A stretch of 16,076 nt of DNA from a virus (IMGVR_UViG_3300028454_001165:64001-80076), one strand, 5' to 3'; positions 2,729 through 16,076 are shown, counted from the stretch's first letter. Notes: generated by a model from the sequence alone, not told the origin. Numbers and translations are program-made.

Positions 2729-3186
2729 TGTATCATTCCATAACATTCGGCAACAAGAACACATACTCGGACTGGCATCTGGTTCCCTCTTCCCGTCCGG
2801 TTGTCGATCCGCCGAAACCGAAGACACAGTATGTGGATATTCCCGGCGCGGACGGTTCCATCGACTTGACGGAATCCCTCGCCGGGAGACCGGTTTTCTC
2901 GGATCGGCAGGGAAGTTTTGAATTCATTGTTTTGAACGATTTTAACCTCGACAACTATTCTTACGATTGGAACAGCGTATATACGGCCGTCTTATCCTAT
3001 CTGCACGGGAAACGGATGCGGATGGTGCTTGAAGACGATCCGACATATTTTTACGAAGGGCGGTTCAGCGTCAATGGCTGGAAGAGCGATGCGAATAACT
3101 CGAAGATCACGATAGATTATGTCGTGGGGCCTTATAAGTACCCCGTCTCGAACGGAGCAAACGACTATACGGGAGGGATCCTCTGA
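2728..3186 (+). CDS. Distal tail protein (Dit)-like
   Basis: 152 aa with the siphophage Dit-like N-terminus (SITFGNKNTYSDWHL...VDIPGADGSIDLTE), between TMP and Tal, with TGATG overlaps at both ends. Confidence 0.78.
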   Translation: MYHSITFGNKNTYSDWHLVPSSRPVVDPPKPKTQYVDIPGADGSIDLTESLAGRPVFSDRQGSFEFIVLNDFNLDNYSYDWNSVYTAVLSYLHGKRMRMVLEDDPTYFYEGRFSVNGWKSDANNSKITIDYVVGPYKYPVSNGANDYTGGIL

Positions 3187-5921
3187 TGTATCAGATTTAC
3201 GCGGATAACACTCTTATCTATGACGATACGAGTTCCGATCCGTATATCAAAGTTGCGTCCCCGTCTTTGACGATGGAGGAAAGCGCGGCGGGATCTCTCA
3301 GGATGACGCTTCCTCCGGGAAACGCCGGATATGAAGCGATTGTCCGGATGGCGACGGAGATCGTCGTCAAAAAGGATGGAGATGAGATCTGGTCTGGACG
3401 GGCGCTTCAGGAAACCAAGGATTTCTGGAATCAAAGGCAGCTCGTCTGCGAAGGCGCGCTTGCCTATCTCAACGACACGACGCAGCCGCCGCACGCTTAC
3501 AGCTATTCCGGCGGAACGGCAGTCCGTCAATATTTGTCCGCGCTTCTGACCGTTCACAATGCGAATGTTCCGGCTTCGAAGCAGTTTACACTCGGCGCGG
3601 TCACGGTGACCGGGGATATTTCCGTCACGACGAACTACGAGAAGACGATGGAGTGCGTCAACAAGCTGATTCAGGAGTTCGGCGGGAACATGCGGGTGCG
3701 GAAGGAAAACGGCGTCCGCTATCTGGACTATCTGAACACGGAAGCCCGCACCACAACGCAGGCGATCGAGTTCGGAAAGAATCTGATCGATTTCACGAAG
3801 TCGTCCGATTCATCAGACTATGCGACGGTTGTCATTCCTCTCGGAGCGAAGCAGGACGAAGAGATCGAAGGAGTCGACAACTATCTAACCGTCAAGAGCG
3901 TGAACGGCGGGTCGATTTACGTGCAGGCATCGCAAGAAGTGATCAGTCAGTACGGATGGATCGAGACGGTCGTTCATTGGGATGACGAGACCAGCGCGTC
4001 CGCTCTTCTCGCAAAGGGGCAGCAGTATCTGTCGGACATTCAGTTCGACACGATGGTGCTCACCCTTTCCGCTCTGGATCTTCATTATCTGAACGCGGAG
4101 ATCGAAGACGTTCGGGTCGGAGACAGGATCCACGTTATCTCAACGCTTCACGGTATCGACCGGTTCTTTCCGGTGAAAAAGCTGACGATCCCTCTGGATC
4201 AGCCGCAGAATACCGTATTCCAGCTTGGGGACGACGTGAAAGTCAGTCTTACGTCCGTGGCGGGGAAGATCAATACCGAGGTCAAGAAGATGATCGACGA
4301 AGCGGTGGACGAGGACGCGATCCTCAGAGAGGCTCGTGATAACGCCGCCGCGATCATGAATCTGAAGACGAACGGGTTCATCACGATCACGACGGACGAT
4401 TACGGAACCAATGAACTGTACATCTCCGAAGTGCGTCCGATCAAGAACGATCAGGGACAGTTTGTGGCGCAGCGTTTCTGGCGGTTCAATATGAACGGCC
4501 TCGGATACACGGAGGACTACGGCGTAAGCTGGAAAGCCGCGATGTTGATGGACGGATCCATTCTCGGGGAACGGATCGCAGCCGGTTCGATCCACGGGAG
4601 CAAGATCACGGCCGGAACGCTGGCGTTAACGACTGCCGCCGGACAGGAAGCTCTGACGATCGGTCTGACGTCTCGCGGCATGGCGACCGACAGTTTTGAA
4701 ATCGGCGACATCGATCCGAACGACGGCTCCAATGTCAGCTCTACAACTTACGCGAGAAGCAAGTATAAGATCTATCTGAGATCCGGGACTGTTGTAAAGC
4801 TCACAAACGACTCCTACCTTTTTGATCCGATCGAGTATTCCGACAATACGGATGCCGAAAGCGGTTTTGTCCGGGCGTATGGTACGCCTGTGGACAGGAC
4901 GTTTACGGTTCCGTCTACGAACTATTATCGGTTCATTGCGCGCAAGACTTCCGGGGCGACGATCAGCAGCAGCGATCTGACGACTATTGCCGGAGCGTTT
5001 GAAATCGGCGGGACTACTGCGACGATTACGGCTGAAAATCTGCAGATTCTCGGAATGGTGACGTTTACCGATCTTTCGACTTCCGGATCCACGACTATCA
5101 ACGGAGCGAACATCCAGACCGGTACAGTCACGGCGAATAAGCTCAACGTCCGCGGTCTGACTGTAACGAGAGATTCCGACGGGGCAGTTTCATTTGCCAT
5201 CGATGCGAATGGGAATGTAACGATCAACGGCAGCGTCACAATGGGAGCGGGATCGTCTATATCGTGGAGTCAGGTAACAGATGTTCCGAGCACAGTCACC
5301 TATGCTTATGACCATGCTGACGCGGCGTATGATTATGCCGGTGACGCATATCTTCTCGCAGGAAATGCGGGTACCGCTGCAAATGCCGCAAAGACAATCG
5401 CAGCTCAGATTGCGGAGGGTACATATACCGGCACGACGATTGACGGCGTGACTTACACGGGTACGTTTATCAACGGTACGTCGATATTCTCTCCCACGAT
5501 CTATGCGAATGAATTCGTCACGAAACCTCCTACATCTTCCTCCGGGACAAACAATACAGGCGGATTCTTATTGCAGGGGTATTATGGCGGAGTACTCAGG
5601 GATGTTTTCAGAATCTCATTCAACGGAGGAAATACCGTTCCGACGACTTATATGGATGCTTGGGGCGAGCTCGACCTGCCATCCAGCGTCCGCATAAGTG
5701 ACGGTTCAAGTTATGGTGGGTATCTCATGGGCGGAACATCCGCGTCTCTGAGTTCCTATGCAACTCTGCAAGGATATTTCAAGGTAGACGGCGTTCTCAA
5801 TACAGGAGGTGGAGGAAACAATAACGGATACTTGGTGGTACGCAACGGAACCGCTGCGCCTTCCGAATATTTCTCTTCGACACCTCCGCTTGGGACCGTA
5901 TATTTCCAATGGGAATACTAA
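3186..5921 (+). CDS. Tail-associated protein (Tal / prophage tail endopeptidase-like N-terminus, spike/fibre-like C-terminus)
   Basis: 911 aa. The N-terminal ~350 aa resemble the structural Tal/gp27-like region (IEFGKNLIDF, VRVGDRIHV). Contains the spike motif FWRFNMNGLGY...DGSILGERIAAGSIHGSKITAGTL, beta-helix-like T/G-rich segments, a short heptad at 5301-5410, and the fibre-type ending GTAAP...GTVYFQW. Confidence 0.78.
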   Translation: MYQIYADNTLIYDDTSSDPYIKVASPSLTMEESAAGSLRMTLPPGNAGYEAIVRMATEIVVKKDGDEIWSGRALQETKDFWNQRQLVCEGALAYLNDTTQPPHAYSYSGGTAVRQYLSALLTVHNANVPASKQFTLGAVTVTGDISVTTNYEKTMECVNKLIQEFGGNMRVRKENGVRYLDYLNTEARTTTQAIEFGKNLIDFTKSSDSSDYATVVIPLGAKQDEEIEGVDNYLTVKSVNGGSIYVQASQEVISQYGWIETVVHWDDETSASALLAKGQQYLSDIQFDTMVLTLSALDLHYLNAEIEDVRVGDRIHVISTLHGIDRFFPVKKLTIPLDQPQNTVFQLGDDVKVSLTSVAGKINTEVKKMIDEAVDEDAILREARDNAAAIMNLKTNGFITITTDDYGTNELYISEVRPIKNDQGQFVAQRFWRFNMNGLGYTEDYGVSWKAAMLMDGSILGERIAAGSIHGSKITAGTLALTTAAGQEALTIGLTSRGMATDSFEIGDIDPNDGSNVSSTTYARSKYKIYLRSGTVVKLTNDSYLFDPIEYSDNTDAESGFVRAYGTPVDRTFTVPSTNYYRFIARKTSGATISSSDLTTIAGAFEIGGTTATITAENLQILGMVTFTDLSTSGSTTINGANIQTGTVTANKLNVRGLTVTRDSDGAVSFAIDANGNVTINGSVTMGAGSSISWSQVTDVPSTVTYAYDHADAAYDYAGDAYLLAGNAGTAANAAKTIAAQIAEGTYTGTTIDGVTYTGTFINGTSIFSPTIYANEFVTKPPTSSSGTNNTGGFLLQGYYGGVLRDVFRISFNGGNTVPTTYMDAWGELDLPSSVRISDGSSYGGYLMGGTSASLSSYATLQGYFKVDGVLNTGGGGNNNGYLVVRNGTAAPSEYFSSTPPLGTVYFQWEY

Positions 5922-5931
5922 GGGTGAGTAA

Positions 5932-8355
5932 ATGGCATATACAGCTACTTTATGCGATACCGTAACCATCAGCACAAGCGGCGATACTATATGCGGCTCA
6001 CAGGCTGGAACTACATCGTATTCCGGTGACGGGAAGACATACTATATCGCGGCGACATTCAATGCGGTCGGATCCGCCGAACTGAGATTCTTCGGTACAA
6101 CTGTGAGCGGAACGGCTTATGTGAGCGCCTATGCTTCAAACCCAAGCGCGACATTCAATGATTCGACCGGATGGCCGAGCCCGTATATTGTAAACGGAAC
6201 TACGACCGCAATCAGCACAAGCGAAAGAGCACTTGCCGTAACGGTAAATATAACAACATCAGGAACAACCGTTTATTTTTATTTCAGAAATGTACAGCCA
6301 AATGTTGCTGTTCTATTTCCGATCATTCGCTTTACAGAGAGCAGTACGCCGCTGTGGAGTGACGAATACACCAATCTCGGTTATGTCACGTCAAACCACA
6401 CGGAAACGCTGAATTCCACAGACCCATATAAAATCTACTGTTATCGTGCCCGATTCAATACTGGCGGCACGCTTCGGTTCGAACAGCCAAGCGGCGGGCC
6501 ATCCACCTATTTGTTCGTAACCGAAACATACAGCAGCGCGATATACGATCACACGACCGGATTGATTTCTTCGTCCGATTGTCTGGATTGGGCGTGGGGG
6601 CCGAATAATATCGACATTTCGATAGGAAACGGAACAACCCTCTATTTCTGGATCAGGCATTATAACGGCAGCGCAACTTCCGGACTGACTTTCAATCTTC
6701 TTCCTCCGGGAAGCGTATGGGCCACGCACGGATTTGACAGCTCAACGCAAATCACAACTTCAGGAACGTCGTGGAGCGGAAGCGCGGGGGATATACTTGC
6801 AAAACAGGTAGAATATATACCGCTTACGTTCAGTACGGCTGGGAGTTATACGTTCTCCTTTTCTGGCAGCGATGGACTCTACGGATATTTGACGTCAAGC
6901 ACGGCAATTGACAGCAACGGTAATCCGACAAGCGTACTTGCCTCCGATACAAGCGGTTCTTCAAGCGTATCGTTTACTTATACGGTTTCGACCGGAACGA
7001 CATATTATCTGATGTTCCGCACCGGAAACGGATCAGAAAACAGCTATTCGTTCTCCATATCTGTTGCATATAACGGCGGAAGCGGAGGACAATGGCTTCT
7101 GGATCCGTCAGATCTCGGAACACAGTCATCGCAATATTACACTTATCACAGCTATTCTCAATACACGCTTTATAAACGTGTAGTTCGTTTCAGTACGTCT
7201 GGAACGGTTACATTTTATTCTGCAGCGAGCAGCAGCGGCACAGTAGTTGACCCGAAGGGCTGGATCACTACGCATGTATCCGGGAATGATTGTGATGATG
7301 TAAACGGAACGCCTCCGTCTACCGCGACGATTCTTGCTTCCAACGATGACGGGGCTGGCAATCGTCAGTTTACAATGACGGCAACCGTATCGGCAAACAC
7401 ACAGTATGATTTCTGGTTCCGTCTTTGTAATGCTTCCGATTCCGGCTATGGATGGATCTACATTGATCCTCCAAGCGGAGGGGGCAATCAATGGAGTTAT
7501 TCCCAGTTAAGCTCCTTGACGAATCTTTCTGCCCAGACAACAAAAAACGTTACGCTCTCGTCTTGGACGGGTGGGTACTTCGCTGTTACATTCGCATACG
7601 GCGGATCGGCGACGGTCAGCATTCCGAGCGGCGCGAACGCGGATTTGTTTGTGACTTCCGCCGACAACAGCTACGATCCGTCCGACGGGTGCCCGTACAG
7701 CGACAGCGGAGGCAGCAAAGCTACAAGCAGCTCGACGCATACGATCACCGTAACGACCAGCGGAACCTATTATGTGTGGGCAAAAGGAAGCACTTCGTCC
7801 ACACAGGGAAATCTGACCGTCACCATCACGCCGCCGAGTCAGTCGCAGCTTTGGACATTGACGGCAACTGCGGATAAAAGCGTGTCCACGGCTGATGTGT
7901 TCTTCTCTTTTCCGATTACAGCCGGGTACATGTATGTCACGAAAGTCACTTTCTCCCAAGCCGGGACTGTCCGCTTCTATACGACCGGTGGGAATATCCG
8001 TCTCGGATGGCTCACGGCCTATACCGGAAGCGCCGATATAGACCGCACGACCGGAATACCGAGCGGTACGATTCTTGCAAGCGACACAAGCTCCGACGGG
8101 GATATTGATTTTTCATACAGCGTACAAGCTACATCGTACTACTTCTATATAAGGTCGAGCAGCTACAGCGATACGACCCAGCTTAACATATACTTCTCCC
8201 CGCAGCAGTCCTCTTCGTACAGGGTTGTAAAGATCTACACCTCAAGCGGGTGGAAGAACGCGATAGTATGGGTTTATACATCAAGCGGCTGGAAAATAGT
8301 TACGATTCCGTGGATCTACACCTCCAGCGGATGGAAAAAGACTGTCACGCCATAA
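5932..8355 (+). CDS. Large Ser/Thr/Tyr/Gly-rich tail fibre / adhesin-like protein with six tandem beta-sandwich (PPC-like) modules
   Basis: 807 aa, SD AGGGTGA at 5921-5927. Six 120-142 aa modules with recurring F..(A/S/G)G(T/S)..F, D..(T/N)GxP...LAS(N/D), GTxYY(F/L)xxR and PP...W motifs. C-terminal triple YTSSGWK. Directly downstream of Tal. Confidence 0.62.
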   Translation: MAYTATLCDTVTISTSGDTICGSQAGTTSYSGDGKTYYIAATFNAVGSAELRFFGTTVSGTAYVSAYASNPSATFNDSTGWPSPYIVNGTTTAISTSERALAVTVNITTSGTTVYFYFRNVQPNVAVLFPIIRFTESSTPLWSDEYTNLGYVTSNHTETLNSTDPYKIYCYRARFNTGGTLRFEQPSGGPSTYLFVTETYSSAIYDHTTGLISSSDCLDWAWGPNNIDISIGNGTTLYFWIRHYNGSATSGLTFNLLPPGSVWATHGFDSSTQITTSGTSWSGSAGDILAKQVEYIPLTFSTAGSYTFSFSGSDGLYGYLTSSTAIDSNGNPTSVLASDTSGSSSVSFTYTVSTGTTYYLMFRTGNGSENSYSFSISVAYNGGSGGQWLLDPSDLGTQSSQYYTYHSYSQYTLYKRVVRFSTSGTVTFYSAASSSGTVVDPKGWITTHVSGNDCDDVNGTPPSTATILASNDDGAGNRQFTMTATVSANTQYDFWFRLCNASDSGYGWIYIDPPSGGGNQWSYSQLSSLTNLSAQTTKNVTLSSWTGGYFAVTFAYGGSATVSIPSGANADLFVTSADNSYDPSDGCPYSDSGGSKATSSSTHTITVTTSGTYYVWAKGSTSSTQGNLTVTITPPSQSQLWTLTATADKSVSTADVFFSFPITAGYMYVTKVTFSQAGTVRFYTTGGNIRLGWLTAYTGSADIDRTTGIPSGTILASDTSSDGDIDFSYSVQATSYYFYIRSSSYSDTTQLNIYFSPQQSSSYRVVKIYTSSGWKNAIVWVYTSSGWKIVTIPWIYTSSGWKKTVTP
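8233..8337 (+). repeat. Three imperfect 24-nt direct repeats encoding (I/V)YTSSGWK
   Basis: ATCTACACCTCAAGCGGGTGGAAG (8233), GTTTATACATCAAGCGGCTGGAAA (8272), ATCTACACCTCCAGCGGATGGAAA (8314). Spacing 39 and 42 nt; differences are almost all synonymous. Confidence 0.92.
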
Positions 8356-8395
8356 AGACTTCAATAAATATTTCATAAAATCAAAAGGAGAAACT

Positions 8396-8722
8396 ATGAC
8401 TTACGGAGCGCTAAACAATGCCGTGCCTGTGCTGAATAAGCTTGTCTTGCAGAATCTGAGGCTCAGGCAGGCGTATCAGCTGACAAAAATAGCGAAGCGG
8501 GTCAATGACGAGCTCGCTTTTTTTAACGCAAAGTATCAGGAGATCATGAACGGCGACTTCCCTGACGACGAGAAAATCAAAATGATGAACGAGCTTCTGA
8601 ATTTTGAGGTCGAATGGGATGTTGAACCGCTTGTTTTCTCAGTTAACGACGATCTCATTCTGTCTGCTTCCGATCTTGAAATGGGCCGGGGGCTGGTTGA
8701 GATAAGGGAAGAACCAACCTAA
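8396..8722 (+). CDS. Small helical phage protein of the tail region (possible chaperone)
   Basis: 108 aa with SD AAGGAG. The helical pattern LNKLVLQNL.L..AY.L.KIAKRVNDEL resembles small proteins that commonly follow fibre genes in Bacillota phages. Function not assignable. Confidence 0.6.
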   Translation: MTYGALNNAVPVLNKLVLQNLRLRQAYQLTKIAKRVNDELAFFNAKYQEIMNGDFPDDEKIKMMNELLNFEVEWDVEPLVFSVNDDLILSASDLEMGRGLVEIREEPT

Positions 8723-8745
8723 CACAACAAGGAGGATTTTGAGCT

Positions 8746-9579
8746 ATGGGAAAATTCAACACTTACCCGGCGGCGGACAGGCTTGCCAAAACCGACATTC
8801 TTCTGAAAGACACGTCGGGTTCTACGGATACCAGAAAGATCACGGGCGAGCTGCTTGCGAGCGATCTTCTCGGTATGATCTCCGCGGACATGCACAGAAA
8901 CGTATATCGCGGCAAGAATCTCGGCACGTCTCTCACGGCGTCGCAGAAGACGGCGATTTCCAGTGGCACGTTCGACGATATTTTCATCGGCGACTACTGG
9001 ACGATCGGCGGGAAAAGCTACGCGGTCGCGGATATGGACTACTGGTATAATCACGGGGATACCGTATTCACGAAGCATCATCTCGTTCTGATCCCGACCA
9101 CCAACATGTACAACGCGAAGATGAACGAGACGAACATCACGACCGGCGCCTATATCGGCTCGGCGATGTACACCGGCGAATACACGAGCGACGAGGAAGT
9201 AAAGGGACTTACCCCCGCCAGAACAGAAATCGCGACGGCTTTCGGGGAGAATCTCCTTACCCACAGAGAGTATCTTGAAAACGCGGTTACGGACGGCATC
9301 GCTACAGCCGGAGCATGGGTCGATTTTACGGTCGATCTGATGTCCGAGACGATGGTCTACGGTCACAGAATCAGATCCACCGGAACAGTTGCCTGCAACT
9401 CCAAGTCCCAGCTCGCACTCTTCAGACTCAAGCCGAACTTCCTCGGAAGAAGCTCTGTATGGCTGTGCGATGTCGTTTCTGCGACCAACTTCGCCCGTGT
9501 CGACAGCTATGGCGCGGCGAGCGGCAACAACGCGTCGAACAGCCTTGGGGTTCGTCCGGTCTTCGCTGTTGGAGTGTAA
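8746..9579 (+). CDS. DGR target protein with C-terminal variable region (predicted C-type-lectin-like fold; likely receptor-binding tail protein)
   Basis: 277 aa with SD AAGGAGG. The C-terminus WLCDVVSATNFARVDSYGAASGNNASNSLGVRPVFAVGV contains the VR and the typical GVRP ending. The N-terminus FNTYPAADRLAKTDILL...TRKIT resembles short fibre-attachment motifs. Confidence 0.9.
   Translation: MGKFNTYPAADRLAKTDILLKDTSGSTDTRKITGELLASDLLGMISADMHRNVYRGKNLGTSLTASQKTAISSGTFDDIFIGDYWTIGGKSYAVADMDYWYNHGDTVFTKHHLVLIPTTNMYNAKMNETNITTGAYIGSAMYTGEYTSDEEVKGLTPARTEIATAFGENLLTHREYLENAVTDGIATAGAWVDFTVDLMSETMVYGHRIRSTGTVACNSKSQLALFRLKPNFLGRSSVWLCDVVSATNFARVDSYGAASGNNASNSLGVRPVFAVGV
9474..9559 (+). repeat. DGR variable repeat (VR) with 3' IMH-like GGGGTTCGTCC
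   Basis: Ungapped match to 10635-10720 (offset 1161). Mismatches at TR adenines: 9496, 9497, 9502, 9506, 9508, 9514, 9515, 9521, 9523, 9524, 9544, 9545, 9558. One non-A mismatch at 9516. Confidence 0.97.
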
Positions 9580-9586
9580 ACCCCGA

Positions 9587-9613
9587 GACCCCTCGTGGGT
9601 CGAGGCGCTTTTT
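9587..9613 (+). other. GC-rich hairpin downstream of VR (candidate DGR target-recognition hairpin and/or weak terminator)
   Basis: GACCC-ctcgt-GGGTC (9587-9601) or the alternative CCTCG-tgggt-CGAGG (9591-9605), followed by cgcTTTTT. Lies 8 nt after the target stop codon. Confidence 0.6.
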
Positions 9614-9657
9614 GAAAAATCCGTAAACAACTACTCAGAAGGGAGATTTACTGAATC

Positions 9658-9975
9658 ATGAATGAAGAGCTTTATACCCTGACTCTCGCGGACGGCACGG
9701 TAATCGAAAACGTCGCCAGAAACGGCGATAACTATATCGTGACCGGGGCCGTCGATACGTCGGTCTTTGAAGACAACTGCGTGCCTCTTACGATTTCCGA
9801 CGGAGAAAATGAGGAAATCCATGAGAATGCGGTCTTCGTGCAGGCACAGGCGCACGGAAATGAAACGTGGCTTGTGTTCCGCGATCTCGGAGCGGCCGAG
9901 CTTCGCGAAATGAGGCTGAGAGCTGACGTGGATTATGTCGCTATGATGGCGGATATCGAACTGGAGGTGGAATAA
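9658..9975 (+). CDS. Acidic phage protein, probable tail-fibre assembly chaperone (XkdW-like position)
   Basis: 105 aa ending ADVDYVAMMADIEL, a pattern typical of proteins immediately upstream of XkdX-family genes. Its stop overlaps the next ATG (TAATG). Confidence 0.6.
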   Translation: MNEELYTLTLADGTVIENVARNGDNYIVTGAVDTSVFEDNCVPLTISDGENEEIHENAVFVQAQAHGNETWLVFRDLGAAELREMRLRADVDYVAMMADIELEVE

Positions 9976-10118
9976 TGGAACATTCTGCAAAATTCGAGAA
10001 GGTAAAGGCTTACTATAAGTCTGGCCTCTGGAACATCACCAAGGTGAGAAACGCCGTCGTGAAGGGATGGATCACCGAAGCTGAGTTCGAGGAAATCACA
10101 GGAATTACCTACGAATGA
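9975..10118 (+). CDS. XkdX-family small phage protein (47 aa; not in the ORF track)
   Basis: Hand translation: MEHSAKFEKVKAYYKSGLWNITKVRNAVVKGWITEAEFEEITGITYE, matching the XkdX pattern (Y..GLW...V..AV.KG.IT..E..EITG). SD GGAGG at 9963-9967. Confidence 0.85.
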   Translation: MEHSAKFEKVKAYYKSGLWNITKVRNAVVKGWITEAEFEEITGITYE

Positions 10119-10624
10119 GCGTAATCGTTCCGAAAAGGAAGCTCTCCCGGTACGAAGCGCTGATCTACGCCGAAACGCTGCAAAAAGAGCTGACTGATTT
10201 AATGCTCAGAGATTTCGGGATAAAAGATATGAACCGTATGCTGAGGAATCAGGCGTTTGCAGCGTCCGGCTGTGATATTCGGTCTGAGGAAGAATACAGG
10301 CTGGCCTGTCGGAAAACAGCGTGGCTGTTCAGTGAGATCAAGAAAAGGATCAATTATCTGACCTCTCTGCTCACAGCCAATCTCAGAGCGGCGCATTCGA
10401 GATTTCCGATGACTCTGCATGAATACGAGATCCGGAGGGACTGCCTGAACGGAGCGATCGTCAACTGTGAGCAGATCAAACAGGAACTGCAAAGATCCGT
10501 TGAAATGTTCGCAGTTGACTTAAACGTATACGAACGCTCTATAAAAGCGATCAACACAGAAATTGAGTTGATAAAGTCTTGGCGATCCCGCGATAATAAG
10601 ATCCGAGTAAAGATCAAGGGGTAG
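10115..10624 (+). CDS. avd: DGR accessory variability determinant (Avd-like four-helix-bundle protein)
   Basis: 169 aa, basic and helical, immediately 5' of TR. Avd-family pattern MSV...R..S.YE / FP....E...RR.....AI..C..I..EL / E..LIK.WR. Start overlaps the XkdX stop (ATGA). Confidence 0.85.
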   Translation: MSVIVPKRKLSRYEALIYAETLQKELTDLMLRDFGIKDMNRMLRNQAFAASGCDIRSEEEYRLACRKTAWLFSEIKKRINYLTSLLTANLRAAHSRFPMTLHEYEIRRDCLNGAIVNCEQIKQELQRSVEMFAVDLNVYERSIKAINTEIELIKSWRSRDNKIRVKIKG

Positions 10625-10634
10625 TGTCTATTTG

Positions 10635-10720
10635 CGTTTCTGCGACCAACTTCGCCAATGTCAACAACAATGGCAATGCGAACAACAACAACGCGTCGAA
10701 CAGCAATGGGGTTCGTCCAG
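10635..10720 (+). ncRNA. DGR template repeat (TR)
   Basis: Intergenic between avd and RT, rich in AAC/AAT triplets (12 AAY codons in the target's frame), identical to VR at all non-A positions except one. Confidence 0.96.
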
Positions 10721-10824
10721 ATTCTCTGCCAACAACAGGGAAGGAGACATTATCAATTCCCGGAAGGGATGAAAAACAAAGCCGGACGTAATTTACTACG
10801 GTAAGTATTACTATAACGGTTAAT
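10721..10824 (+). ncRNA. Structured TR-RT spacer (candidate 3' part of the DGR RNA)
   Basis: Three hairpins read by eye: TTCTCTG/CAGGGAA (10722-10742), TCCC-GGAA-GGGA with a GNRA loop (10758-10769), and TAAT-TTAC-TACG-GTAA-gt-ATTA with a cUNCGg loop (10789-10810). Confidence 0.55.
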
Positions 10825-12102
10825 ATGGCAACAAAATACGAAGACCTTATTTGCGACGCCAATGTTCTTTATAAGGCCTACAAGGCCTCGGTCAAGGGCA
10901 GTAAGTGGAAAGAATCCACTCAGAAGTTCATGCTCAATTTTCTGAGCTATATTTTCGAGCTTCTTGACAAGCTCGTGACGCGGACATATGAAAACGGTCC
11001 GACCGATGAGTTTGAACTGCATGAACGAGGCCGGATCAGGCCTATCACAAGTCTGTGCGTATCGGACAGAATTATCCGTCACGTTCTCTGCGACGAGGTG
11101 TTTCTGCCGGAAGTGCGGAAGAAGATCATCTACGACAACGGAGCATCCATCAACGGGCGCGGATTGGCTCATTCCAGAAAGAGATTTGAAGTACATCTGC
11201 GCAGGTACTTCAAAGAATATGGAAACAATGGATACATCCTGTTCGGTGACTTCTCCAAATTCTATGATAATATCGTACATGAGATCGCAAAACGCGAATT
11301 GCTCAAACTGGTTGACGACGATGAATTTGTAGAGTGGCTGCTGACTTTGATATTTAACGGTTTCAGAGTTGACGTCTCTTTCATGACAGATGATGAATAT
11401 TCGAAGTGCATGACTTCGTGTTTCAACAAGCTGGATTACCGAGAAATTCCAAAGAGCGAACTGACCGGCGAGAAATACATGGAGAAATCGGTCAACATAG
11501 GAGATCAGCTGTCACAGATTATCGGAGTTTATTACCCATATAGGATCGACAACTATGTCAAATACGTCCGAAGTCAAAAGTATTACGGGAGATACATGGA
11601 TGACTTCTATATCATGAATCCGTCAAAAGAAGCGCTTGCAGATATTATGGACCACATCAAAATCATTGCGAGTGAGCTGGGAATACATATCAACGATAAG
11701 AAAACAAGAATCGTAAAGATCAAAGGGCCCTACCGTTACCTCCAATTTCGTTATGAATTGCTCGATAACGGAAAGATTGTTGTAAAAATCAATCAGAAGC
11801 GCGTGACGTGTATGAGGCAAAAGCTGAAAAAGCTGGCTGCGAAACTTGCTCGCGGTGAAAGAAAATATGAAAATATTGAAGGCATGTTCAGAGGATGGAT
11901 GTGCGAATTCTATAAATATATGTCAAAAGAACAGAGAAAGAATATGCTGTCTTTGTATGAGGATTTATTCAAGAAAACAATTCGGATCATAAAGAAGCCG
12001 AATAATAAGAACAAGATGATCATTGAAGACAGAAACGATGTTCAAAAGGAGGTATCACAGTATGGCTCTGACAATAAAGAAGGTCACAATGCCAGCGGAT
12101 AA
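10825..12102 (+). CDS. DGR reverse transcriptase
   Basis: 425 aa. RT motifs ERGRIRPI, DRIIRH, DFSKFYDNIVH, the DGR-type IGxxxSQ motif (IGDQLSQ, 11497-11517) and catalytic YMDD (11593-11604). Adjacent to TR and avd. Confidence 0.97.
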   Translation: MATKYEDLICDANVLYKAYKASVKGSKWKESTQKFMLNFLSYIFELLDKLVTRTYENGPTDEFELHERGRIRPITSLCVSDRIIRHVLCDEVFLPEVRKKIIYDNGASINGRGLAHSRKRFEVHLRRYFKEYGNNGYILFGDFSKFYDNIVHEIAKRELLKLVDDDEFVEWLLTLIFNGFRVDVSFMTDDEYSKCMTSCFNKLDYREIPKSELTGEKYMEKSVNIGDQLSQIIGVYYPYRIDNYVKYVRSQKYYGRYMDDFYIMNPSKEALADIMDHIKIIASELGIHINDKKTRIVKIKGPYRYLQFRYELLDNGKIVVKINQKRVTCMRQKLKKLAAKLARGERKYENIEGMFRGWMCEFYKYMSKEQRKNMLSLYEDLFKKTIRIIKKPNNKNKMIIEDRNDVQKEVSQYGSDNKEGHNASG

Positions 12103-13285
12103 AGTACCCATAAAGTGCCCGTATACAATGACGCCGACAAGAATCGTCATCCACAATACGGCGAATGACGCCAGCGCGCTGAATGAAATCAAATACATGC
12201 AGTCCAACAATAATCAGGTTTCCTTTCATTATGCCGTTGACGATAAGATGGCTGTGCAGGGGATCGAGCTTTGGCGGAACGCATGGCACGCCGGAGACGG
12301 CGGAAGCGAGAAAAGCCTCGGAAATCGGCAGGGAATTGCCATCGAGATCTGTTATTCCAAGTCCGGCGGCGAGCGGTTTATCAAGGCCGAACAGAACGCC
12401 GCAGAACTTGCCGCGCAGCTTTTGATCGATTTCGGCTGGGGGCTCGATAAAATCACGAAGCATCAGGATTACTCCGGCAAATACTGTCCGCACAGGACGC
12501 TTGACATGGGCTGGGATCGGTTTGTAAAAATGGTCGAAGAGAAACGCAACGCTCTGCTCAAAGCGAACAAAGCCGCGGATGTGACCAAAACGACGCTGAA
12601 CGGCTATACGATCGAGCGGGCAAAAGACTTCTCCATCCTGTACTGGGACAAGTCCAAGAAGAAGGGAACCGCACAGTCTTACATCAACGGAGGATTCTTC
12701 GGAGTTTACAAAGAGGGTAACATAACATTTACCCTGCCTGTCGGAAACCTCATTTGCGATGTGATCCCGGACAGTCGGCTTGTCTATTCGGTTCAGAAGT
12801 ACTGGAAGCCTTATGTGAGCGGCGGAAAATTCCGTTACGGAACCGCTGACAATGTTTCGGGTCAGTTCCGTGGAAAGAAGGTCACGACGCTGGTTCTTCC
12901 GACAAACGGAGCTCCCTATGTGGACGAGCTGTCCGCTGCTCCCGTTTCCTCGCGCTATGCCATTTCCGGCATTCCGGTCATTCGGAATGGGGTGGATGTT
13001 AGTTACAACAGTTTCGTCAAACCTCAGGGCTGGGACGATTCGCCTTTCTATGCGACGAGCCGTAATTTCATCGGGCTGAAGGGAACGTCTCTGTGGATCG
13101 TCACGGGAACTTCGAAAACCGCAAATTTCGTTGCCACATCGGAAGTTTATGAAAAGATCAAAGACTTTGGATTCAACGATCTGATCGCGCTGGACGGCGG
13201 AGGCTCTTACTACCACAAGTATGAAGGAAAGGCGGCCTTTGTCTGGAGCGACCGGGATGTCAGCAATCTGGTGGCGTTCGGATGA
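12062..13285 (+). CDS. Endolysin: N-acetylmuramoyl-L-alanine amidase (Amidase_2, XlyA/CwlA-like) fused to a phosphodiester-glycosidase (NAGPA-like) domain
   Basis: Start reassigned to ATG 12062 (SD AGGAGG at 12047-12052), giving 407 aa. Zn-amidase motifs IHNT, AWHAGDG, IEIC, KHQD, KYCP. C-terminal INGGFF and ALDGGGS motifs of the NAGPA/DUF2233 family. Confidence 0.88.
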   Translation: MALTIKKVTMPADKVPIKCPYTMTPTRIVIHNTANDASALNEIKYMQSNNNQVSFHYAVDDKMAVQGIELWRNAWHAGDGGSEKSLGNRQGIAIEICYSKSGGERFIKAEQNAAELAAQLLIDFGWGLDKITKHQDYSGKYCPHRTLDMGWDRFVKMVEEKRNALLKANKAADVTKTTLNGYTIERAKDFSILYWDKSKKKGTAQSYINGGFFGVYKEGNITFTLPVGNLICDVIPDSRLVYSVQKYWKPYVSGGKFRYGTADNVSGQFRGKKVTTLVLPTNGAPYVDELSAAPVSSRYAISGIPVIRNGVDVSYNSFVKPQGWDDSPFYATSRNFIGLKGTSLWIVTGTSKTANFVATSEVYEKIKDFGFNDLIALDGGGSYYHKYEGKAAFVWSDRDVSNLVAFG

Positions 13286-13641
13286 AGAAAGATACGGTGC
13301 TTTGGGCGCGGCAGTACTCCAAGCGTCTGATTACATTTCTGCTCGCGGCGTGGGCCATCGGAGCCGTGATCGGGGTAATCTATGAATTCATACGTCTCAT
13401 TGCGGCCCCGGAGATGGCTTCTATGGATTCCTTCTATATTTATCTCGCGGTTCCGTTGACGTGCGGGATCCCGTCTTATGTGATCCCGAATGTTTTCCTC
13501 AACAAGGAAAAGGTGCGGCAGGGGTACGATCCGGCATACGATTTGAAATATCTTGAAAAAGAAGACATGACCGGAGAAGGGATCGGAGAACCGAACGAAG
13601 GCATGGAAACCGCAATCGAGCAGGTATCGATGGATATTTGA
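13282..13641 (+). CDS. Membrane protein with two predicted TM helices (holin-like or lysis accessory)
   Basis: 119 aa with hydrophobic stretches LITFLLAAWAIGAVIGVIY and FYIYLAVPLTCGIPSYVIP and an acidic tail. ATGA overlap with the endolysin stop. Confidence 0.6.
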   Translation: MKKDTVLWARQYSKRLITFLLAAWAIGAVIGVIYEFIRLIAAPEMASMDSFYIYLAVPLTCGIPSYVIPNVFLNKEKVRQGYDPAYDLKYLEKEDMTGEGIGEPNEGMETAIEQVSMDI

Positions 13642-13685
13642 AACAAACGTGGAAAGGACGCTGAACAGCGCACGGGTATATCACT

Positions 13686-14119
13686 TTGAAAGAATTTCTG
13701 CTTGCCTTGCTCGGAGGCGGCGTGGCTGTAACGGTTGTCGAAACAATAAAAGAGGCAATCGCCTGGCATCGGAACCGTAAGGCTCAGCTCGAAGACAGAA
13801 GGGAAGAGGAGCTGAAGCGAAAAACGGAAGAAAGAATCCGAAATCTCGAAACAACTGTAGAGAAAGTCGAAAAAATGGTGATGATCCTTCTGGAAAGCCA
13901 AAAGAATTCACTATTTGACCGGATACAGTATCTTGCAAGAAATACATTGCGGAAGGTGCGATCGATGTGGACGACCTTCGGGCATTGAACGCGCTCTACC
14001 GGAGTTATCACGGTTACACGGACGATCACGGTGTGTATCACGAAGGCGTCGGTGGAAACGGCGATCTTGAAGACCTGATGAAGATCGTTCGCAAGCTGCC
14101 GCTCAAAGATTTGAAATGA
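13686..14119 (+). pseudogene. Frameshifted holin-associated membrane/coiled-coil protein (~144 aa if repaired)
   Basis: ORF 13686-13988 has an N-terminal TM and ...DRIQYLAR. A -1 shift at AGAAAT (13938-13943) continues as KYIAEGAIDVDDLRALNALYRSYH...GVGGNGDLEDLMKIVRKLPLKDLK* (stop 14117-14119), the C-terminus typical of this lysis-module family (Y...G.I..DDL...Y..YH...GGNG....M..V..LP). Confidence 0.72.
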
Positions 14120-14132
14120 CGGAGGAATCAAA

Positions 14133-14387
14133 ATGAATTCTGAATTTGTAAAGAAATTCCTGTCGAGGAAGTTTCTCGTGTCTCTCATCGGAATGATCGT
14201 CGGGCTGGCGATCGCTCTCGGTGCGGACAGTTCCGAAATCATGCAGGTTGCCGGAGCAATTACGTCCGCCGTATCCGCAGTCAGCTACATTTTCGGCGAG
14301 GCAAAGATCGACGCGGCCGCTGTGGAGCCGATTCCGCTTCTTCCCGCTCCCAAGAGCGATTCGGATGAAGTAAACGACTGGAAATGA
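14133..14387 (+). CDS. Holin-like protein (two TM helices)
   Basis: 84 aa with SD GGAGG at 14121-14125. KKFLSRKFL motif followed by two hydrophobic helices; located in the lysis module. Confidence 0.72.
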   Translation: MNSEFVKKFLSRKFLVSLIGMIVGLAIALGADSSEIMQVAGAITSAVSAVSYIFGEAKIDAAAVEPIPLLPAPKSDSDEVNDWK

Positions 14388-14399
14388 TATTTGAAGAAG

Positions 14400-14430
14400 A
14401 GCCGCTTGGGGTATTCTCGAGCGGCTTTTT
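14400..14430 (+). terminator. Rho-independent terminator ending the late operon
   Basis: AGCCGCTTGGG-gtatt-CTCGAGCGGCT, an 11-bp stem with 2 G-U pairs, followed by TTTT. Further T-rich sequence downstream and a purine/A-rich 5' flank suggest it may be bidirectional. Confidence 0.85.
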
Positions 14431-14473
14431 CATTCTCTCTTCTTTTTTTGTGCACGCGGGTGATGATGAAGTG

Positions 14474-14482
14474 TGGTAGAAT
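14474..14482 (+). promoter_or_regulatory. Candidate extended -10 promoter for xis
   Basis: TGgTAGAAT about 31 nt upstream of the xis ATG and downstream of the terminator. No good -35 at 16-18 nt spacing. Confidence 0.4.
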
Positions 14483-14513
14483 CGCACCGGAACAAAACTC
14501 ACGGAGGTGTTTT

Positions 14514-14717
14514 ATGAAAAGATCAGATCTGCCCATTGAGAGCCGTTACGCAATAACGATTGAGGAAGCTGCCGGTTATTCTTTGATTGGGGAGAACCGA
14601 CTGCGTAAGATCATAGAGTGCGATCAAACGCTCGAATGGGTCATGCATGTCGGATCACAGGTAAGAATCAAGAGGGAACTGTTTGAGAGGTGGCTGGATG
14701 AGCAGTACCATCTTTGA
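14514..14717 (+). CDS. xis: Tn916-family excisionase
   Basis: Start reassigned to ATG 14514 (SD GGAGGT at 14503-14508), giving 67 aa. MKRSDLPIESRYAITIEEAAGYSLIGENRLRK closely follows the Tn916 Xis pattern (D.PI..RY..TIEEA..Y..IGEN.LR). Confidence 0.9.
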   Translation: MKRSDLPIESRYAITIEEAAGYSLIGENRLRKIIECDQTLEWVMHVGSQVRIKRELFERWLDEQYHL

Positions 14718-14727
14718 AACGGAGAGC

Positions 14728-14756
14728 TTGACAAAGGAGACCATGAGTGGTATAAT
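14728..14756 (+). promoter_or_regulatory. Consensus sigma-70/sigma-A promoter upstream of int
   Basis: TTGACA (14728-14733), 17-nt spacer, TATAAT (14751-14756), plus the extended -10 TG at 14748-14749. Confidence 0.88.
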
Positions 14757-14804
14757 GTCCCTAACACATATCTACCACGAGCATCTTTTGTCAGAAAGGA
14801 GCAA

Positions 14805-16076
14805 ATGATGCCGCAACGCAAAGACATGAAAAACCGGAACTTGCTTCCGGGTGAGTACCAAAAATCTGATGGGAGGTATGAGTATCGTTACACAGATACA
14901 AATGGAAAACAGCGTTCTGTGTACAGTTGGATGCTGACACAGACTGATCGTCCCCCGGCAGGAAAATCATCACCGAAGTGCCTTCGGGAAATCGAACGCG
15001 AGATCGCAAAAGATTTGCAGGACGAGATAGATAGATTCAAGGCACGAAAAATGACGCTCAACGCTTTCTATCTGGACTACATCGAGAATAAAAAGGAACT
15101 CAAGGAAACCACCAGAGTGAACTATAAATATATGTACAAAACCTTTGTGTGGGAGGAGTTTGGCGCAAAAAAGCTGCCGGACATTAAGTATTCCGATGTA
15201 AAGAGATTCTACAATCATCTCATGCGGGACTGTCACATGAAACCCAACACACTTGAGACAATCCACACAATCTTGCATCCGATTTTCGGCACGGCGGTTC
15301 GCGACGGCTACATTCGCACAAACCCCACGGACGGGGTTATGGCAGAGATCAAGAAAAGTAACGATTGGGAGAAACCAAAACGTCATGCTTTGACTGAGTC
15401 GCAACAGATCGCGTTCATAGAGTACATTCGCGACCATCAAACCTATAGTCATTGGCTGCCGCTCATGACGGTTCTGCTCGGGACAGGCGGGCGTGTCGGA
15501 GAAATTCTCGGTCTGACTTGGGACGATGTGGATTTTAGCAATGAAGTTATCAATATCAATCATAATCTACTCTACCACATCAGCGAAGAAACTGGAAAGG
15601 CAAAACTGTCTGTCGGTACACCAAAGACCCGCTCCGGCGAAAGAGAGATTCCAATGTTTTCGGCAGTCAAGGAAACGCTGCTAAAGCTCTATGAGGAGCA
15701 AAAATGCGATGGCTTCTGTAAAACAAATGTGGACGGGTATACAGGTTTCATCTTTATGAACCGATTCGGAGACGTACTTACACCGCCTTGCGTAAACCGG
15801 GTCATCAATCGTGTTCTACGTGATTATAATATTGAGGAAGGAATGCGCGCGGAAAAGGAAGACCGGGAGCCGACATATCTCCCACACTTCTCGGTGCACA
15901 ATCTGCGGCACACATTCTGTACGAGGATGTGCGAGAACGAAACCAATCTGAAAATCATTCAAGAGATCATGGGCCACTCCGATATCACCACGACGATGGA
16001 CATCTACAACGAAGCGACGCGGGAAAAGAAGCGGGAATCGTTCTCCAATCTCGAAGGAAAGATGAAGATCTGCTGA
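14805..16076 (+). CDS. int: Tyrosine integrase, Tn916 Int family
   Basis: 423 aa; the start may be ATG 14808 given SD AAGGAG at 14796-14801. Tn916-type N-terminal arm-binding domain (GEYQKSDGRYEYRY...VYSW.L..TD..PAGK) and catalytic R (GTGGRVGE), K (PKT), HxLRH, MGH and Y (DIY). Confidence 0.94.
   Translation: MMPQRKDMKNRNLLPGEYQKSDGRYEYRYTDTNGKQRSVYSWMLTQTDRPPAGKSSPKCLREIEREIAKDLQDEIDRFKARKMTLNAFYLDYIENKKELKETTRVNYKYMYKTFVWEEFGAKKLPDIKYSDVKRFYNHLMRDCHMKPNTLETIHTILHPIFGTAVRDGYIRTNPTDGVMAEIKKSNDWEKPKRHALTESQQIAFIEYIRDHQTYSHWLPLMTVLLGTGGRVGEILGLTWDDVDFSNEVININHNLLYHISEETGKAKLSVGTPKTRSGEREIPMFSAVKETLLKLYEEQKCDGFCKTNVDGYTGFIFMNRFGDVLTPPCVNRVINRVLRDYNIEEGMRAEKEDREPTYLPHFSVHNLRHTFCTRMCENETNLKIIQEIMGHSDITTTMDIYNEATREKKRESFSNLEGKMKIC

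Follow-up and report, generated by a model that had tools for sequence, protein, structure and literature searches.

The window, a 16,076-nt stretch of phage DNA (IMGVR_UViG_3300028454_001165:64001-80076), very probably carries a diversity-generating retroelement (DGR) of the type known from phage BPP-1, at positions 8746-12102. Its order is target, avd-like accessory gene, template repeat (TR) and reverse transcriptase (RT), and it is part of a 78.8-kb temperate phage in which it rewrites two targets, each through a variable repeat (VR). Coordinates without a prefix are positions in the window. Those starting with C45 refer to a contig of the genome of the host, a gut-type Clostridia bacterium. 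This genome measures 4.3 Mb, and the window is the right-hand end of a prophage at C45:113582-192393.

The core of the element is a pair of repeats. A repeat search returned a direct repeat at 9474-9557 and 10635-10718, which was extended by eye to an ungapped 86 nt (9474-9559 and 10635-10720). Outside these limits the sequence is unrelated on either side. The downstream copy, on the + strand at 10635-10720, is the TR. It begins 10 nt past the stop codon of the accessory gene and is non-coding in its context. The upstream copy, VR1 (9474-9559, + strand), falls within a 277-aa open reading frame (ORF), in frame and at its 3' end, and encodes residues 244-271 of the first target.

The TR is made up of 27 A, 25 C, 19 G and 15 T. 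It differs from VR1 at 14 positions, 13 of which are adenines in the TR (8 A>G, 3 A>C, 2 A>T). The sole other mismatch is a T>G at TR position 10677, adjoining a mutated AA. With 27 adenines among 86 positions, the hypergeometric probability that 13 or more of 14 mismatches fall on them is 2.7e-7. The original prediction had described this ungapped pair with the same tally of substitutions, and a recount agrees with it exactly.

Read in the frame of the 277-aa ORF, the TR consists of 12 AAY codons, which hold 24 of the 27 adenines, plus ACC, AGC and CCA. Substitution of TR adenines cannot yield a stop codon. The number of possible protein variants is 15^12 x 4 x 4 = 2.1e15, and the arithmetic behind the earlier figure of about 2x10^15, free of stop codons, is right.

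Target gene 1 (8746-9579, + strand) encodes a short N-terminal part and a DUF6273/C-type-lectin-like domain (residues 65-277). The 277-aa protein has no Pfam match of its own. It does have more than 6600 homologues of around 273 aa, a few of them with PF19789 (DUF6273). An AlphaFold2 (AF2) model built on 42 homologues has a pLDDT of 88. Over residues 65-277, VIA matches this model to the N-terminal DUF6273 domain of a Thomasclavelia IgA peptidase (9qa6) with a Z of 12.8. Further VIA matches are the C-terminal domain of Legionella Lcl (7.7), many C-type lectin-like domains (around 5) and the Treponema DGR protein TvpA (2y3c, 5.1). A C-type lectin fold in the target had been anticipated, and the predicted model has such a lectin-like fold.

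Judging by where its gene lies in the tail module, target 1 may be a receptor-binding protein, and its variation would then alter host range, as the original prediction proposed. It is also possible, if somewhat doubtful, that the DGR is real and that the tip of target 1 binds another ligand: mucus or environmental glycans, for example, or whatever serves secondary or reversible attachment. Variation would then tune adherence, not host range. The literature on DUF6273 targets leaves open environmental material or host surfaces as ligand (PMC11792537; bioRxiv 10.1101/2024.10.15.618418), and the 807-aa ORF just upstream of target 1 (5932-8355) could encode the main fibre. Against this, the target 1 gene belongs to the distal part of the tail module and has an XkdX-family gene close by, and Mtd-like DGR targets hold this position in BPP-1 and in Acutalibacter phage Fontainebleau.

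A search of the whole genome with the TR also hit C45:136672-136762, a third copy. It lies beyond the window, 50 kb upstream of the TR. This is VR2 (C45:136669-136754), at the 3' end of a 168-aa ORF (C45:136268-136774). Compared with TR 10638-10720, all 19 of its mismatches are at TR adenines, and its reading frame is the same as that of VR1. The distance between TR and VR2 is 50.1 kb in the prophage, or 28.7 kb in the other direction on the circular genome. The possibility that VR2 lies in a neighbouring element was considered and rejected, as the attP junction and the G+C profile (both described below) put it inside the same prophage.

This changes the extent of the system. The original prediction spoke of a complete DGR, and the cassette does hold a target, an avd-like gene, a TR and an RT. 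The system is larger than that, given that the TR also feeds VR2.

Target 2 is a stand-alone DUF6273 domain, with a weak Pfam match and an Atlas structure that has a TM of 0.90 to DUF6273 clusters. It is similar to target 1 solely in the stretch encoded by the VR. Its neighbours are a primase-polymerase (phrog_4210; phage DNA polymerase), an annealing protein and a helicase, together a replication module. By eye, the protein has no evident signal peptide.

Further evidence comes from a comparison of two natural copies of the phage: the one in this genome, and the one in sample SRR17284438, where contig L008 holds the TR and VR1 and contig L010 holds VR2. The TR is identical in both (86/86), while the surrounding 10 kb differs at 268 sites (2.6%). 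In SRR17284438, VR1 differs from the TR at 19 positions, all of them adenines. VR1 differs between the samples at 18 positions. Seventeen of these are at TR adenines, and the 18th is the window's lone T>G. VR2 differs between samples at 23 positions, 22 of which are at TR adenines. Variation at TR-adenine positions next to an invariant TR had been proposed as a test, and it is seen in a second natural copy. Since VR1 and VR2 differ at adenines while the TR is identical, both targets have been rewritten since two lineages around 3% apart separated.

Target 2 is therefore a real and actively rewritten target in the early region of the phage. What the protein does there is more speculative. It is perhaps not a virion receptor-binding protein at all, and one rather unlikely idea is that it is an early-expressed binder, diversified by the DGR, which acts within the infected cell or on it. 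Its ligand might, for instance, be a factor of the host or of a competitor that itself varies. If true, this would be a retroelement that diversifies a non-structural phage protein.

One could also argue that the element is a relic, which wrote both VRs in the past and has since fallen silent or become defective in this lysogen. Old polymorphism would then account for the differences between the samples, and the odd changes away from adenines (one in VR1 of the window, one in VR2 of SRR17284438) could be drift since the last event. We think this quite improbable. The 425-aa RT and the 169-aa accessory ORF are intact in both samples, and the accessory proteins are 99% identical. The window RT has intact YMDD and SQ motifs. 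The neighbouring DNA has drifted by 2.6% and the TR not at all. In addition, both VRs differ between copies that are themselves only 2.6-3% apart, so rewriting is recent on that scale.

That there is no retroelement, and that the segments are alike through ordinary duplication and divergence, or through gene conversion, among paralogous lectin domains, finds some encouragement in the likeness of related DUF6273 tips in many phages and in an exact 40-nt piece of the TR in two otherwise unrelated phage contigs, yet it is effectively refuted because the adenine bias is directional, with one-way mismatches at both targets (13/14, 19/19), a non-coding TR located between accessory gene and RT, and a TR that stays invariant between samples while both VRs vary.

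The RT gene occupies 10825-12102 on the + strand. Its 425-aa product matches RVT_1 and phrog_1423 (E 2e-58), and scores far below the cut-offs of models for group II RTs, retrons and defence-associated reverse transcriptases (DRT). As had been noted for the RT near the TR, the YMDD and IGxxxSQ motifs are intact, the latter in the form IGDQLSQ. The best match among PDB sequences is 8ub7_A, the bRT of BPP-1 in its DGR ribonucleoprotein.

Placing the RT in a phylogeny had been suggested, and a small maximum-likelihood tree was computed from 16 RTs: 8 from phages, 4 group II RTs from the same bacterial family, 2 retron-like ones from the same phylum, the other RT of this genome, and the window RT. 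The window RT is sister to that of phage Fontainebleau (99/99). Both fall within a DGR clade (100/98) that further holds BPP-1, nd4, nd12, Toutatis, Taranis, Shimadzu and BalMu-1, most of these RTs being from phages with published DGRs. The group II RTs (98/95) and the retron-like RTs are outside it. In the motif-4 column, the named DGR RTs have SQ, whereas most group II and retron-like rows have SP. A tblastn search of the host genome returned no second RT of the window kind. Together with the TR/VR bias and the lectin-like fold of the target, the RT clade upholds the BPP-1-type mutagenic retrohoming architecture that was originally proposed.

The alignment of the window RT with those of Fontainebleau, BPP-1, nd12 and Shimadzu has two other features. 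Between motifs 3 and 4 (residues ~170-215), the window and Fontainebleau RTs share about 40 inserted aa that the other three lack. A C-terminal extension of about 50 aa is unique to the window RT.

The accessory gene (10115-10624, + strand) has its stop codon 10 nt before the TR, and encodes a 169-aa protein with an isoelectric point (pI) of 9.53. For comparison, Avd proteins have a mean pI of 9.5 and are very poorly conserved (Wu et al., PMC5758913). The AF2 model (pLDDT 73.5) is a bundle of four helices, the first two of which are separated by an insert. The top four VIA matches of this model all belong to one four-helix family, Avd / 'S23 ribosomal': 2rld (Z 15.0), 2gsc (14.2), 4dwl (12.9) and 8ub7_C (12.5), with near-full coverage and an rmsd of 1.7-2.5. 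On BPP-1 Avd itself (4dwl) the rmsd is 1.9 over 109/110 residues. Foldseek alone gave only E = 0.12 for the same model. A Pfam scan of 53 family members, which are the 169-aa protein and 52 relatives, had no match, and hhalign of the 53-member profile against BPP-1 Avd gave a probability of 0.1.

From its predicted fold, charge and position, the 169-aa protein is probably Avd-like. The earlier label "avd" is borne out as far as the position upstream of the TR, the charge and the predicted fold are concerned, but the sequence is unrecognisable as Avd. The family is large, with at least 1027 cluster representatives, and none of the domain databases connects these 1000 or more clusters with Avd. 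Because of this, annotation pipelines will label such cassettes 'avd-less'.

Both VRs end in GGGGTTCGTCCGG, which in VR1 is a G+C-rich stretch at 9547-9559 (+ strand). Its TR counterpart, 10708-10720, ends in ...CCAG. In all four VR versions (VR1 and VR2, in two samples each) a G replaces the A of the TR. By analogy with BPP-1, GGGGTTCGTCCGG would act as the initiation of mutagenic homing site (IMH), and the end of the TR is IMH*-like. Near-matches to GGGGTTCGTCCGG, such as GGCGTTCGTCCGG, occur at around 30 sites on many contigs of the whole genome. These may mark other lectin-like domains that encode G-V-R-P, or may just reflect the high G+C content.

A 29-nt element, CCCGAGACCCCTCGTGGGTCGAGGCGCTT, follows at 9582-9610 on the + strand. 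It contains a GACCC/GGGTC hairpin and is trailed by a run of T's. In the 4.3-Mb genome this element is present exactly two times, 23 nt past VR1 and around 30 nt past VR2. The hairpin appears in the fold, with a short stem of 5 bp plus 2 bp. The G+C-rich site and the downstream hairpin sit where the BPP-1 paradigm expects an IMH and an inverted repeat. CCCGAGACCCCTCGTGGGTCGAGGCGCTT is a candidate hairpin for target recognition, and may act as a terminator as well.

Some results weigh against a BPP-1-type DGR rewriting two targets. First, there are non-adenine changes, namely the T>G in VR1 of the window and a G>T in VR2 of SRR17284438. These are some drift after the last homing, or RT errors. 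Second, the 169-aa accessory protein has no match in Pfam, PHROG, NCBIfam, PADLOC or PDB sequences, and Z values of 12-15 are near background for helical bundles. The four-helix fold is for that reason support, not proof, of the Avd label. Third, DNA folding after VR1, VR2 and the TR gives energies no better than those of shuffles, and this includes the hairpin. The case for the hairpin therefore rests on the exact conservation and uniqueness of CCCGAGACCCCTCGTGGGTCGAGGCGCTT.

If the element works like that of BPP-1, the TR and the spacer downstream of it would be transcribed. The RT and the basic four-helix accessory protein would then copy this RNA to cDNA, misincorporating opposite template adenines. 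The cDNA would take the place of a VR, with the IMH-like end GGGGTTCGTCCGG and the 29-nt hairpin element found after both VRs as its guides. The recipients are VR1, in the lectin-like tip of the 277-aa tail-module protein, and VR2, in the 168-aa DUF6273 protein of the replication module. The spacer between TR and RT (10721-10824, + strand) is presumed part of the DGR RNA from its position. It matches no Rfam family and has no outstanding fold. In an Rfam scan of the whole window, no family attains its gathering score.

DGRs of this type are already known, and the two-target form has been published for gut phages. What is distinctive here is modest: the long distance between TR and VR2, an Avd-like family that is an orphan by sequence, and an RT insertion specific to one clade.

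The founding example is BPP-1 (mtd - avd - TR - brt; AY029185). Shared with it are the order of avd-like gene, TR and RT, a VR at the 3' end of a lectin-fold gene in the tail module, adenine-specific changes from TR to VR and a TR rich in AAY. The G+C-rich IMH-like end and the hairpin downstream of the VR are putative further parallels. The two elements also differ. The window RT is 24% identical to that of BPP-1 and has 425 aa instead of 328, with the insertion of around 40 aa between motifs 3 and 4 and the C-terminal tail. The accessory protein has no sequence homology to its BPP-1 counterpart and is 40 aa longer. The target is a 277-aa DUF6273 protein and not Mtd, two extra genes separate it from the accessory gene, and there is a second DGR-written target.

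Published work on gut phages describes DUF6273 as a lectin-like domain that DGRs target (PMC10743442, PMC11792537, bioRxiv 10.1101/2024.10.15.618418). DGRs with two DUF6273 targets have been described for the Faecalibacterium phages Lelie, CP11 and Toutatis (PMC11792537; bioRxiv 10.1101/2024.10.15.618418), and for nd4 and nd12 (PMC10743442). As in the window phage, one TR serves two DUF6273 proteins, in each of which the VR encodes the C-terminal end of the domain, and the RTs are in the same clade. There too, one target is near the cassette and the other is a small protein far off (17.5 kb in Toutatisvirus). The RTs are however only 25-30% identical to that of the window, and the cassette-proximal target here, at 277 aa, is small and is neither an Ig-repeat 'tentaclin' nor a Hoc-like protein.

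In the survey by Wu et al. (PMC5758913), the order avd - TR - RT is called the B type, and non-adjacent targets within 50 kb are common in phage DGRs. The present element is of the B type, with one adjacent and one non-adjacent target. Its TR-VR2 distance is at the upper edge of that range.

The closest cultured relative of the cassette is found in Acutalibacter phage Fontainebleau (ON453893; locus L013). It has the same order of target, accessory gene, TR, RT and lysis genes. Identities with the window are 38.6% for the RT, 45% over the lectin domain of the target, 25% for the accessory protein (E 2e-12, same position) and 79% for the TR. Fontainebleau has its own 94-nt TR/VR pair (L013:7385-7478 and 8100-8193), with 16 out of 19 mismatches at adenines, which goes unannotated in the record. 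The phage differs in being a 39-kb phage with an RT of 341 aa, and in lacking the XkdX and 105-aa genes between target and accessory gene. In the literature library searched, we found no paper that describes a DGR in Fontainebleau, and its record annotates the genes only as hypothetical protein or reverse transcriptase. The record also has a CDS across the TR (35085-35339), which is unlikely to be genuine.

A blastn search of the cassette against the phage collection matched only the TR of Fontainebleau. The exact 40-nt TR piece was also searched for in IMG/VR and JGI metagenomes. This gave two matches, IMGVR_UViG_3300029947_000015 (L027) and ERZ808274 NODE-124 (L028). Their TRs are identical to the window TR over the central 40 nt and around 85% identical over 76-86 nt, and their DNA is otherwise dissimilar to the window. 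They had been candidates for further copies of the same phage. This was rejected: they are unrelated phages, and uninformative on activity here. The shared sequence suggests that the AAY-rich core of the template may be strongly conserved, or exchanged, among DGRs that target DUF6273.

As for its use, nature provides here a clean example of a DGR. Each part, in cis or in trans, can be identified, and the comparison of two wild copies shows two rewritten targets next to a fixed template. If the lysogen can be cultured, it would lend itself well to the study of DGRs in gut Clostridia of high G+C content. It also provides a data point on why many gut phages aim one DGR at a small, stand-alone, lectin-like protein of the early region. 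The current picture of DGRs is unchanged by the present findings.

The limits of the prophage follow from the second sample. Contig L008 (SRR17284438_5482), from an independent sample, is 97.4% identical to window 5907-16076. It runs from C45:192394 straight into C45:113582, and the two matches overlap by 18 nt. This join is the attP junction, and it defines the prophage ends as C45:113582 and C45:192393. Because L008 carries this junction, the phage is in joined (circular or concatemeric) form in the SRR17284438 sample. The att core is TTCCCGAC[A/G]ATGAAGA, beside a tyrosine integrase and a Tn916-Xis-like gene. The G+C content of the island is 0.43-0.57, versus 0.60-0.63 in the host, which agrees with the limits set by attP. 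In the window, positions 14805-16076, and what lies beyond them, belong to this right end of the prophage.

Several other genes surround the cassette. Upstream of target 1, a Prophage_tail protein gene (3186-5921) precedes the 807-aa ORF, and a 108-aa ORF (8396-8722) comes after it. A 105-aa ORF (9658-9975, + strand) lies between target and accessory gene and is conserved in the second sample. It has no family match in Pfam, PHROG or NCBIfam. The XkdX-family gene next to it (9975-10118, + strand) encodes a small phage protein of 47 aa (PF09693, E 5e-17).

Downstream, an endolysin gene at 12023-13285 encodes Amidase_2 with a weak NAGPA-like C-terminal match. If its start is the ATG at 12062, which is the start called in SRR17284438, it overlaps the 3' end of the RT gene by around 40 nt.

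The host genome also contains a second, unrelated DGR (G000 C45:309002-313380; locus L012 = 311068-314541), whose RT was met in a Pfam search. An ORF of at least 959 aa has the VR (C45:311733-311870) at its C-terminal end, and the TR (312045-312182) is 312 nt downstream. The TR is followed by a 359-aa RT at 312301-313380, and 14 out of 16 VR mismatches are at TR adenines. This RT, the other one of this genome in the tree above, has NMDD for YMDD and INQ for SQ. It falls within the DGR clade, on a long branch.

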